Shown piece by piece: positions 10,733 to 11,848 of a DNA stretch of 30,560 nt; position 1 is the first letter of the stretch; each line of letters begins with the position of its first letter. The translations under genes were made by a program, and so were the position numbers. This DNA comes from a bacterium (GTDB lineage: Bacteria > UBP7 > UBA6624 > JBBIMK01), in the NCBI GenBank assembly GCA_037444445.1, contig JBBIMK010000023.1:1-30560 (forward strand). Reading direction: 5' to 3'. The notes under the pieces were generated by a model that saw only the letters and a program-made list of their open reading frames with translations, did not search any database and was not told where the DNA came from.

Positions 10733-11848
10733 ATGACGGAAAAAGGAAGAAAGAAAGCGGGATTCACACTTGTAGAGTTGATGGCAGTGGCGTCGCTGGC
10801 GGCGATTCTTTCCAGTTTCGCCCTCTCCGCCGTCGCGGGGGCCATCAATTTTAAGAAGGGTATAGACACCGAAGGAAAAGCGGAGGCATTGAAGGGAGCC
10901 CTCCTGCGTTACTTTGAGGATGTGGGAACTTTTCCGGTGATTGACCCCGGTGACACGACCGTGGGGAGTACGGGTCTTCGGAAACTCGGTCAAAATCTGG
11001 ATAATCGTCAGGGCTGGAAAGGAAATTATATGGACCCCAAAGTCCATCAGAAATTCCTGGTGGACGGGTGGGACCGGAATTTCCGGTACCGTTTTGGCGT
11101 GAACGCCAATGGGGTAGGGGTGGCTCTCATCCTGAGCCCGGGGCGAAACGGGGTGGTGGATTCCAACCTTACCAGCTGGACTCAGGACGGCTGGGTGCCT
11201 CAAGGGGATGACATCGCCCGAAAAGCCTCTGTGGCAGAAATCATCAAGCGGCAGGAAGAGCAGGTTCGTCGCCAGTTACTTCTTCAGAGAGGTCGTCTGA
11301 TTGCCACGAATCCCACCGCCTCCCCCACCCTCTTCCCCCTGCCTACCGACATCTGGGGAAGAAACCTGGTGTATGCCCGATGCTCACCTTACTCCGCCAT
11401 CATTTACAGTGTGGGGTATGATGGGGTGGATAATTCTGGTGGGACCACTGGAATCTGTGACCGGGGGTATCCGTTAGGGGATGACATAATGGAGAATGCG
11501 AAATGGGAGGTTATGGGGCGATTGGCGGGGCTTTTGAACGACGGCTGGACCGGAGGCCTCCACGCCAATCAGGCGGTCTGTTCCGCCTATACCTATGTGG
11601 CGGTGAATAACTTCAACGACCCACTTATTATTGATTATTACGATTCCCGGTTGAATCACCGAAATGTCACCGTCGCCCCCCGCTCCACCCAGTATATCCC
11701 CGATGTCTACCCCTGGATGATGACGGGAAATCGGGTTCCTCTGGTGGTCTACCGCAACGGTGTAGAATATGACGACTTCCTGGGTGCCAATGCGGATATG
11801 GACCAGGATTGTTATTATCAAAAAATCTTTTACAACGCCGGGGGGTGA
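10733..11848 (+). CDS. Giant GspG-like pseudopilin paralog 1 (371 aa from ATG 10733; the ORF track starts at 10703)
   Basis: Class III signal MTEKGRKKAG|FTLVELMAVASLAAIL. GspG-like head: ALLRYFEDVGTFP...GWKGNYM...DGWDRNFRY...ALILSPGRNG...GDDIAR. Second GspG-like module: DIWGRNLVYARC..IYSVGYDGVDNS..C...GDDI. A C-terminal Cys...Cys domain follows. The SD-like GGGGGTGA lies 5 nt before ATG 10733. Confidence 0.85.
   Translation: MTEKGRKKAGFTLVELMAVASLAAILSSFALSAVAGAINFKKGIDTEGKAEALKGALLRYFEDVGTFPVIDPGDTTVGSTGLRKLGQNLDNRQGWKGNYMDPKVHQKFLVDGWDRNFRYRFGVNANGVGVALILSPGRNGVVDSNLTSWTQDGWVPQGDDIARKASVAEIIKRQEEQVRRQLLLQRGRLIATNPTASPTLFPLPTDIWGRNLVYARCSPYSAIIYSVGYDGVDNSGGTTGICDRGYPLGDDIMENAKWEVMGRLAGLLNDGWTGGLHANQAVCSAYTYVAVNNFNDPLIIDYYDSRLNHRNVTVAPRSTQYIPDVYPWMMTGNRVPLVVYRNGVEYDDFLGANADMDQDCYYQKIFYNAGG

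Follow-up and report, generated by a model that had tools for sequence, protein, structure and literature searches.

Four tandem pilin genes and their neighbourhood

The window, by which we mean the whole stretch of 30,560 nucleotides that was analysed, carries on its forward strand a tight operon of four tandem paralogous genes, each with a similar Shine-Dalgarno sequence, whose products (P1–P4) are ~350-380 aa in length and 29-35% identical to one another. The genes and features around them are as follows.

9494 to 10627, forward strand: exported AMIN-domain protein, directly upstream of P1 (PF11741 AMIN, 28.9 bits)
10703 to 11848, forward strand: P1, trimodular pilin-like protein, 381 aa from the ATG at 10703; likely true start ATG 10733
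11853 to 12902, forward strand: P2, trimodular pilin-like protein, 349 aa; likely start ATG 11853
12909 to 14012, forward strand: P3, trimodular pilin-like protein, 367 aa from a GTG; likely start ATG 12918
14027 to 15136, forward strand: P4, trimodular pilin-like protein, 369 aa; degenerate signal RG/EILVA, without Glu5
15275 to 17401, forward strand: PilB/GspE-type assembly ATPase (PF00437, 450 bits; PF05157, 77.7 bits)
17398 to 17799, forward strand: conserved 133-aa open reading frame after the ATPase, with no Pfam match and no family
27778 to 28917, reverse strand: GspF/PilC-type platform protein (PF00482 T2SSF, 133 bits)

The starts of P1 (10733), P2 (11853, rather than the 11769 open reading frame) and P3 (12918) were chosen by comparison with orthologs and by Shine-Dalgarno spacing. 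P1, P2 and P3 display the class III signals GFTLVE, GVTFVE (G/VTFVE) and GFTLME (G/FTLME), each with Glu5 present, and P4 has a Gly and a hydrophobic helix and lacks Glu5. The same distribution is seen among the orthologs, since Glu5 is kept in all p1-p3 and missing in all p4 (the latter comprising those of the window, L001 and L003 together with P0021 and P0022). The N_methyl profile PF07963 recognises P1 at 25.3 bits (cut-off 21.2), as does TIGR02532 at 23.5 bits (cut-off 16.3); P2 and P3 score under the N_methyl cut-offs (16-17 bits), and P4 gave no N_methyl match in the Pfam search. As a set, P1–P4 belong by their class III signal peptide to the type IV pilin/pseudopilin superfamily. All four also exceed the gathering threshold of 21 bits for PF08334 T2SSG (P1 28.1, P2 51.8, P3 48.2 and P4 50.3 bits), and with 37.6-53.4 bits none reaches the cut-off of 88.85 bits for the GspG equivalog TIGR01710. 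The T2SSG matches cover only residues ~45-140, and N_methyl and T2SSG together only ~10-145, so that behind this N-terminal, GspG-type pseudopilin part the C-terminal ~230 aa of each paralog fall outside any family.

Orthologs of P1 were found in four further loci, and the order p1-p2-p3-p4-ATPase is kept in three of them (L001, L005 and L024); in the fourth, L003, p1-p4 are followed by a partial open reading frame at the contig end. The relative that carries L001 was sampled from a hot spring rich in iron (PMC6137239). UvrA homologs fall from 91% and 74% identity within the lineage to 63-64% in 'bacterium JZ-2024 1' and ~58% in Bacillota and others, which places the organism no more closely than in a deep, unclassified lineage of bacteria. 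The AMIN-domain protein keeps its position in L001 and L005, and L024 has at this position a 405-aa protein with no Pfam match. At its N terminus the ATPase carries an MshEN c-di-GMP-binding motif, and its C terminus is extended by ~150 aa outside any family; it scores 69.1 bits against NF053729 (cut-off 38) and below the cut-offs of TIGR02538 and TIGR02533. Counterparts of the 133-aa open reading frame lie at 10059-10460 in L001 and 15676-16074 in L024, and this synteny suggests that it may be part of the pilin system. The platform gene, which is 11 kb from the pilin cluster in the window, adjoins the cluster in L024 (17684-18886; T2SSF 184.7 bits).

No further pilin gene, and no separate small major pilin, is present in any of the five loci, a gene content that suits a tip complex and a whole fibre alike. 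Neither the 30.5-kb window nor the 20-kb L024 locus contains a secretin or GspC/L/M, the only such components there being the E-type and F-type genes, and the window shows no retraction ATPase of the PilT type. The available sequence contains no genes for a prepilin peptidase, a secretin or PilMNO/GspCLM, so that an external fibre assembled from P1–P4 is assumed here. Promoter and terminator scans returned fewer sites than shuffled sequence did.

A C-terminal module outside known families, with a predicted β-sandwich fold

Beyond the GspG-type part, each paralog consists of a second module and a Cys-bracketed C-terminal module, with four cysteines (C1–C4, in order) distributed between the two.

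11228 to 11545, forward strand: P1 second helix and module 2 (duplicated GspG β-core, as judged by profile comparison), carrying C227 and C252
11546 to 11845, forward strand: P1 C-terminal Cys-bracketed module, a predicted β-sandwich (W282-G381), carrying C293 and C370
12639 to 12899, forward strand: P2 C-terminal module, starting at W263
13707 to 14009, forward strand: P3 C-terminal module, starting at W267
14825 to 15133, forward strand: P4 C-terminal module, starting at W267
11381, 11456, 11579 and 11810, forward strand: P1 Cys codons (C227, C252, C293 and C370)
12480, 12555, 12672 and 12873, forward strand: P2 Cys codons (residues 210, 235, 274 and 341)
13551, 13635, 13740 and 13977, forward strand: P3 Cys codons (residues 215, 243, 278 and 357)
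14669, 14744, 14858 and 15101, forward strand: P4 Cys codons (residues 215, 240, 278 and 359)

A preliminary description of this DNA had delimited the C-terminal domain in all four pseudopilins, and both the domain, which is real and common to the four, and its ranges stand, each range starting at the Trp of the W.GG motif and ending at the last sense codon, so that the domain takes up the final 90-105 residues. The shared motif offered there needs some revision. Its C-terminal part, AD(L/M)(N/D)..C...K.(Y/F)(G/Y), fits all four paralogs; the N-terminal part was written with one dot too many and should read W.GG....(P/Q)..C, and P1 deviates in the '.(L/M/V).V.N.Y' portion. A second Cys pair, reported for the preceding module as beginning with Y.RC, does occur in all four proteins, with P3 reading Y.QC.

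The same description could name no family for the domain, and our searches bear this out: the module has no match in Pfam, NCBIfam or PDB sequences (E up to 10), nor in Foldseek searches against the PDB and BFVD. Foldseek matches to the pVHL β-domain, archaeal AglB and Pandoravirus proteins had E values of 2e-3 or worse and TM scores ≤0.48, and were set aside as generic β-sandwich resemblance. A profile of the module searched against 1.84 billion representative proteins gave 13 matches, 10 of them genuine, all of which are pilins of 348-385 aa with the module at the C terminus, or a fragment of such a pilin. The long repeat proteins P0024 (2102 aa), P0026 and P0027 matched only over a D.D.(D/N) stretch and were rejected as compositional or motif matches. 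A homolog search with full-length P3 returned P0001-P0005. When genome contigs were scanned with N-terminal pilin patterns, only generic GspG-like loci (L007-L023) and no family member were recovered, and the metagenome scan added a single new locus, L024. The C-terminal module is thus a real and rare domain outside known families, added to a known kind of protein, the modular pilins.

AlphaFold2 (AF2) predictions, which rest on shallow alignments of 13-19 sequences, give an outline of the fold. The P1 module modelled alone has seven strands and one short helix (pLDDT 80.8, pTM 0.71). In the full-length model of P3 (pLDDT 76), a helix at residues 15-66 is followed by β module 1, a second helix at 164-188, β module 2, a linker modelled with low confidence (260-276) and seven strands at 281-363. 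Confidence is weaker in the W.GG linker (pLDDT 34-49) and in the last third of the module (~60-73). In the predicted secondary structure C3 lies 3 residues ahead of strand 1 and C4 1 residue ahead of strand 7, and the second module Cys adjoins a loop, D.(N/D).(D/N)C, similar to a calcium-binding DxDxD motif.

Invariant cysteines and a duplicated pilin core

The preliminary description also held that the four cysteines are invariant and named in advance an alignment of homologs as the means of checking it. Across the 23 aligned family members, drawn from at least 6 genomes or metagenomes, all four Cys columns are invariant (23/23), in an alignment where paralog identity is 26-46% per domain and only 32 of the 367 query positions show no variation. 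Exactly four cysteines are found in 17 of the 23, and the remaining nine Cys in the alignment are sporadic, all in leader peptides or the N-terminal helix. Judged from this alignment, the conservation of the cysteines is far beyond chance. The successive spacings are 23-28, 35-41 and 65-82 residues, and no CxxC or CxC motif occurs among the four. The cysteines would form intra-module disulfides, C1-C2 and C3-C4.

Profile comparison with hhalign relates module 1 to module 2 with a probability of 94% and an E value of 1.2e-7, and module 2 also retains a weak T2SSG match (E 0.058, profile positions 64-100). On these comparisons the GspG β-core occurs a second time, in divergent form, as module 2, and given this duplication the C1-C2 pair would be a staple within a pilin-type fold. 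By our alignment the pair falls in the loop where GspG has its calcium site. Module 1 lacks both C1 and C2, and so does P0005, a tandem-GspG relative without the C-terminal module. The C-terminal domain itself resembles neither GspG module in the hhalign profile comparison.

Selection on the C-terminal module

Comparison of the window with locus L001 gave dN/dS values of 0.07-0.15, indicative of purifying selection on the module region. Among orthologs, moreover, no part is better conserved than the C-terminal module: p1 and its L003 counterpart are 64% identical over the module, against 27-44% over the other parts. Columns that are invariant within ortholog groups yet differ between groups make up 11% of the module and 2-6% of the sequence elsewhere. 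This combination of highest conservation with paralog-specific invariant positions points to a fixed, specific partner or inter-subunit contact rather than to a fast-evolving adhesin, and such strong conservation among orthologs is untypical of exposed adhesins.

A model for P1–P4 and its alternatives

The reading that we favour, with moderate confidence, is that P1–P4 are trimodular 'modular pilins' on a GspG-type base, whose disulfide-stapled modules are displayed at the exterior or tip of a fibre. Each subunit begins with a class III signal peptide, a hydrophobic α-1 helix and a GspG-type head, continues with a second long helix and the divergent copy of the GspG β-core bearing the first invariant Cys pair, and leads through a short linker with the invariant W.GG into a lineage-restricted, predicted seven-stranded β-sandwich of ~90 residues with an invariant Cys just before its first and last strands. 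Once the proteins have been exported and the prepilins cleaved, one disulfide would lock module 2 (C1-C2) and another the C-terminal module (C3-C4), and the neighbouring PilB/GspE-type ATPase, in response to c-di-GMP, could polymerise the subunits with the GspF platform via their α-1 helices. The Glu5-less P4 would enter first and cap the tip in the manner of GspK/PilK, with P1-P3 stacked below, and from this order of assembly four distinct β-sandwich modules would end up at the fibre exterior or tip. Each module may present its own conserved surface, making a fixed and specific contact with a ligand or with the other modules.

Disulfide formation and pairing, filament assembly, tip location and binding function are what we infer for P1–P4. 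Minor-pilin tip complexes are capped by a subunit without Glu5 (PMC10191384), and P4, which has lost Glu5 while p1-p3 keep it, has the sequence signature of such a tip-capping minor pilin; GspK itself it resembles neither in sequence nor in fold. Modular pilins occur widely and are probably exposed at the tip (PMC8179133).

It is also conceivable, though we regard it as fairly unlikely, that a thick heteropolymeric filament has its body built from P1 or from all four proteins, the duplicated cores and β-sandwiches of neighbouring subunits interlocking into an outer layer that keeps the fibre stable in hot surroundings, with the module being structural and having no ligand. The five loci, with no pilin gene beyond these, are in keeping with such a fibre, as are the similar Shine-Dalgarno sequences of four genes in one tight operon and the hot-spring origin of the L001 relative (PMC6137239); the conservation of the module, with its paralog-specific invariant positions, likewise suits fixed subunit-subunit contacts. 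However, the major pilins of known type IV filaments are small, steric considerations are held to place modular pilins at the tip (PMC8179133), and the gene for a major pilin could lie in another part of the genome. The loss of Glu5 from p4 alone, moreover, fits a capped, ordered complex.

Two further explanations take the proteins away from an external fibre or the cysteines away from disulfides. P1–P4 could build a periplasmic pseudopilus or envelope-anchored complex, a short T2SS-like piston or scaffold that stays in the envelope and whose C-terminal modules have as their binding partner a secreted substrate, peptidoglycan or the AMIN-domain protein encoded upstream. GspG, the best sequence family, is the major pseudopilin of the T2SS, the conserved first gene of the cluster encodes that AMIN-domain protein, and a PilT-type ATPase is missing from the window, all in keeping with such a complex; yet the scores of 37-53 bits fall well short of the 88.85 required by the GspG equivalog TIGR01710, and a secretin and GspC/L/M are absent from the window and L024. 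The Pfam name T2SSG says little about function, because T2SSG-domain pilins are common outside true T2SS, and on balance we judge an envelope complex improbable. A metal or cofactor site made by the four cysteines, for instance a single four-Cys Zn/Fe site bridging module 2 and the C-terminal module, would account for there being exactly four invariant Cys and might suit a relative from iron-rich water, but we consider it very improbable indeed. The spacings given above include no CxxC or CxC, and AF2 places the two Cys pairs in separately folded modules with a low-confidence linker between them. The proteins are, furthermore, exported and extracytoplasmic, and paired cysteines in extracytoplasmic proteins usually form disulfides.

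Modular pilins are regarded as a way for simple type IV filaments to acquire new functions, and most of the modules grafted onto them are uncharacterised. The present family is very clean and very rare, with ~10 clusters among the 1.84 billion representative proteins; in the operon each pilin combines a duplicated pilin core with a new β-sandwich, and it is this module, not the pilin core, that is most constrained. The four invariant cysteines provide a directly testable folding hypothesis. A filament made solely of P1–P4 subunits would extend what is known of how large pilins can be and how filaments can be built, and a tip complex would represent a paralog-built alternative to the H-I-J-K quartet. 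A more far-reaching reading, which we hold to be unlikely, is that these loci encode an undescribed subclass of type IV filament from an uncultured, deep-branching thermophilic lineage, built from four 40-kDa trimodular pilins only and without a small major pilin, with paralog-specific, disulfide-locked and possibly calcium-binding modules as a new kind of tip or sheath and a new fold family. Practical value is limited, as the organism is uncultured and the function only inferred.

Comparison with known systems

Among the closest known systems is GspG (PF08334; 3gn9, 5wda and 3fu1), which matches residues ~10-145 of P1–P4 (5wda profile, E 4.8e-8) and on which, in the form of 3gn9, the full-length AF2 model superposes with a TMt of 0.72. 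GspG, however, is ~135-150 aa long, with one head domain, a calcium site and no cysteines, whereas P1–P4 run to 350-380 aa, carry the core in duplicate together with two invariant Cys pairs and a further β-sandwich, and lie outside a T2SS secretin or GspC/L/M context in the window and L024. A partial parallel is offered by uncharacterised tandem-GspG pseudopilins such as P0005 (374 aa; locus L006, next to T2SSE/T2SSF), which carries repeated GspG cores on one α-1 helix and is 29% identical to P3 over 46% of P3, its last repeat aligning with module 2. Unlike P1–P4, it lacks Cys where these have C1 and C2, and its sequence stops shortly behind module 2, without the β-sandwich.

The D-region of classical type IV pilins, a match to which would by the preliminary description have refuted its reading, is analogous at most to module 2, where the C1-C2 pair would staple a long loop of a pilin-type α/β fold. 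C3 and C4, by contrast, flank an independent seven-stranded β-sandwich that is predicted to lie behind the pilin folds, separated by the low-confidence linker, and the C-terminal module is not a D-region.

Two systems resemble P1–P4 in their presumed role at the tip. The type IVb minor pilins CofB and TcpB consist of a pilin domain, a β-repeat and a C-terminal β-sandwich and form a trimer at the tip; they share with P1–P4 a three-part plan ending in a β-sandwich and are thought to initiate and cap the fibre (PMC8179133, PMC10191384). No match to them, or to any other pilin-associated β-sandwich of the PDB, was obtained among PDB sequences (E up to 10) or among the best 50 Foldseek PDB matches, and CofB/TcpB is one protein forming a homotrimer, whereas P1–P4 comprise four different paralogs whose order is fixed. 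The GspH-I-J-K and PilH-I-J-K quartets offer a genetic parallel, with four pilin genes in conserved order, in one operon beside an assembly ATPase, and a last member (GspK/PilK) that lacks Glu5, as p4 does in every ortholog. H, I, J and K differ from each other in fold and size, however, and accompany a separate major pilin, in contrast to P1–P4, which are all paralogs on the same trimodular plan with no fifth pilin gene seen.

A further comparison is with the modular pilins, exemplified by PilB (vWA module) and PilC (lectin module) of Streptococcus sanguinis (Raynaud et al. 2021, PMC8179133), many of whose kind carry modules without a database signature (PMC8179133). In the AF2 layout P1–P4 conform to the definition of Raynaud et al. 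2021, in that an N-terminal pilin module is joined by a short linker to a C-terminal module predicted to fold separately (isolated module pTM 0.71). They differ in that the graft lies outside known domain families, the pilin core is itself duplicated, and all four paralogs of the cluster carry the module, whereas elsewhere it is one or two minor pilins that do so beside a plain major pilin.

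Gene array and N-terminal families

The four paralogous pseudopilin genes P1–P4 lie back-to-back at 10703–15136 (+), separated by gaps of 4–14 bp, and encode products of 349–381 aa with pairwise identities of 29–35%. The likely true starts of P1, P2 and P3 were set from orthologs and Shine-Dalgarno spacing.

10703–11848 (+), P1, likely true start ATG 10733
11853–12902 (+), P2, likely true start ATG 11853
12909–14012 (+), P3, likely true start ATG 12918
14027–15136 (+), P4

The longest P2 ORF begins at 11769 (11769–11852, +), so that its first 80 nt lie within the end of P1; since orthologs and a Shine-Dalgarno sequence place the real start at ATG 11853, automatic ORF calls would overstate the P1/P2 overlap.

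Pfam and NCBIfam matches are confined to the N-terminal third, where residues ~10–145 hold the prepilin N-methylation motif, which in P1 exceeds its cut-off, together with the T2SSG/GspG domain (28–52 bits, cut-off 21). Scores against the GspG equivalog TIGR01710 are 37–53 bits, under its cut-off of 88.85. A family profile run against all PDB sequences matched at positions 1–145 only (GspG 5wda, E 4.8e-8), and the remaining ~230 residues have no family in Pfam, NCBIfam or PDB sequences.

A duplicated pilin core

Full-length P3 was modelled with AlphaFold2 from 19 sequences (mean pLDDT 76), and the model superposes on Vibrio GspG 3gn9 with a TMt of 0.72. Its parts, by residue, are as follows.

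15–66, pilin alpha-1 helix
113–162, GspG-type sheet
164–188, second long helix
211–258, second small sheet and short helix
260–276, low-confidence linker with W.GG inside
281–363, seven strands

Alignment of the two sheets by hhalign (probability 94%, E 1.2e-7; aligned pattern D.W....Y...(sheet)..S.G.N...(D)S....GDD) shows the second to be an internal duplicate of the first, and Pfam T2SSG also reaches it, weakly, in P1 and P4. The preliminary description had placed the cysteine pair C1 and C2 in a preceding module; the pair is real, and because its sheet duplicates the first, this module is a second, Cys-stapled pilin core. In the same alignment C1 stands in for the residue that follows ‘Y.R’ where the first strand ends, and C2 for a Trp of the long loop in which GspG has its calcium site.

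A more distant relative, P0005, has an equivalent repeat that lacks both C1 and C2 and after which the protein ends, indicating that the two cysteines come and go together and that the β-sandwich is an add-on specific to the P1–P4 family. P0005 itself (L006 10001–11125, +) is a Cys-free pseudopilin in which one alpha-1 helix carries three GspG-like repeats, encoded directly 3' of T2SSE and T2SSF genes. Tandem-GspG pilins thus exist outside the P1–P4 family and seem to be undescribed.

Invariant cysteines

Relatives were gathered by three routes: a P3 homolog search, which returned P0001–P0004 as well as P0005; the contigs L001, L003, L004 and L005 of these homologs, each bearing p1–p4 in the same order; and one metagenome locus, L024. 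With 23 family members aligned, each of the four Cys columns is occupied by cysteine in 23/23, bearing out the invariance proposed from P1–P4, all of which carry the four residues. Exactly four cysteines are found in 17 of the 23 proteins, the few extra ones being confined to leader peptides or the N-terminal helix. The proposed C-terminal ranges (11546–11845, 12639–12899, 13707–14009 and 14825–15133) each run from exactly the Trp of the invariant W.GG to the final codon; the motifs match as described, except that the first carried one dot too many and P3 reads Y.QC.

The L024 p3 gene (11380–12467, +) is split at the junction of module 1 and helix 2 into two overlapping ORFs (170 and 212 aa), with all four cysteines retained in the second half, reflecting either an assembly-error frameshift or a pseudogene.

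Fold, rarity and conservation of the C-terminal module

Folded alone with AlphaFold2 (13 sequences; pLDDT 80.8, pTM 0.71), the P1 module has seven strands and one short helix, with C3 three residues ahead of strand 1 and C4 one residue ahead of the last strand. A conserved D.(N/D).(D/N) loop immediately precedes C4 and appears to resemble DxDxD calcium-binding loops. Scanning 13 module members against Pfam at E up to 10 gave no match in common, and a module profile gave zero matches to PDB sequences at the same threshold. Foldseek reached at best E 0.019 and TM ≤0.45 against the PDB (AglB, pVHL beta-domain) and E 2.9e-3 and TM ≤0.48 against BFVD. The module is therefore, on the predicted model, a β-sandwich in the broad sense for which no relative could be identified. 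Nor is it a pilin D-region, and the earlier statement that no family could be named holds.

When 1.84 billion representative proteins were searched exhaustively with HMMER, the module profile matched 13 of them, 10 of which are genuine, being pilins of 348–385 aa with the module at the extreme C terminus, or a fragment of such a pilin. The module is thus very rare and seen only in this architecture. The other three were rejected as long repeat proteins with matches limited to the acidic loop.

No other part of the protein is as well conserved among orthologs as the module: between the window and L003 it is 64% identical in p1 (other parts 27–44%), and between the window and L001 88% (other parts 71–77%), with dN/dS against L001 of 0.07–0.15, compared with 0.19–0.22 for the pilin core. 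Between paralogs its identity is only 26–33%, and columns invariant within an ortholog group yet differing between groups are most frequent here (11%, against 2–6% elsewhere). Each paralog's module thus has its own fixed identity, a pattern more in keeping with a specific partner or a contact between subunits than with an adhesin that diversifies rapidly.

Neighbouring genes

The genes that accompany the array are listed below.

9494–10627, conserved exported AMIN-domain protein, upstream of P1
15275–17401 (+), PilB/GspE-type ATPase with MshEN motif, downstream of P4
16925–17401 (+), C-terminal extension of the ATPase, ~150 aa, no Pfam match
17398–17799 (+), conserved 133-aa ORF without family, overlapping the ATPase gene by 4 bp
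27778–28917 (−), GspF-type platform gene, 11 kb off on the other strand

The tandem MshEN c-di-GMP-binding motif at the ATPase N terminus (residues 6–57; 15275–15445, +; NF053729, 69.1 bits, cut-off 38) suggests control of assembly by c-di-GMP. Both the ATPase extension and the 133-aa ORF are also conserved at L001 and L024; they may be accessory parts specific to this system. In L024 an AMIN-like protein, p1–p4 and the ATPase are followed, in this order, by a 132-aa ORF, a further and weaker T2SSE-like gene, T2SSF and a gene for a MurG-like glycosyltransferase. This second T2SSE-like gene (16071–17684, +; 537 aa; PF00437 160 bits, against 458 bits for the first ATPase), between the 132-aa ORF and T2SSF, has no counterpart in the window cluster and may be a degenerate partner ATPase. 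No secretin, PilMNO/GspCLM, prepilin peptidase or further pilin gene was found in any locus examined.

Adjoining the GspF-type gene, 29388–30335 (−) encodes a putatively lipoprotein-like product of 315 aa, in which Cohesin (PF00963, 45 bits) is accompanied by weak PKD-like domains and a C terminus rich in Pro. Synteny with the pilin cluster is kept in L001 for the gene at 20533–22449 (−), whose 638-aa product combines TPR repeats with a C-terminal thioredoxin-fold (AhpC/TSA/Redoxin, WCGPC) domain; its N terminus is read as a putative signal or membrane segment, and it might have a role in extracytoplasmic thiol-disulfide chemistry, conceivably including that of the pilin cysteines.

An rRNA operon is also present in the window, whose UvrA is at most 63–64% identical to anything beyond its own small clade. 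The source is an uncultured, deeply branching bacterium, probably thermophilic; the L001 relative is from the Chocolate Pots hot spring in Yellowstone (PMC6137239). The 23S rRNA gene (189–4944, −) is 4756 nt long, compared with 2925 nt for the model, and contains the following features, which together indicate at least two intervening sequences.

1541–1860 (−), group I intron (Rfam RF00028, 52.7 bits)
825–1493 and 2217–2762 (−), LAGLIDADG homing-endonuclease ORFs (PF03161, 155 bits; PF00961, 43 bits)

Discussion

The best-supported reading is that P1–P4 are a set of trimodular ‘modular pilins’, a concept taken from earlier work (PMC8179133). The GspG-type core would drive polymerisation via the adjacent ATPase and the platform, while one disulfide would lock the duplicated core and another the new β-sandwich. 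The observation behind the preliminary description is confirmed, and its interpretation as an oxidatively folded, displayed tip or adhesin-like module is partly supported in this refined form; for P1–P4, disulfide bonding, location in a filament and a function in binding are inferred.

The same arrangement could be read as P1–P4 making up the whole fibre, the modules forming a stabilising sheath, or as a periplasmic pseudopilus or scaffold. That the four cysteines form a metal site is unlikely, because CxxC motifs are absent and the residues are split over two separate modules.

Within the modular pilin set, P4 would probably cap the structure. Gly-1 and Glu5 are kept in all p1–p3 orthologs, and all p4 orthologs lack Glu5 (RG|EILVA, RG|VALLS, KG|YVLVL); in known type IV filaments, assembly is initiated by a minor-pilin complex capped by a Glu5-less subunit (PMC10191384). 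What is new here is the domain, which is very rare and sits on proteins of a known kind, in an unusual arrangement in which all paralogs carry it and the core is duplicated.
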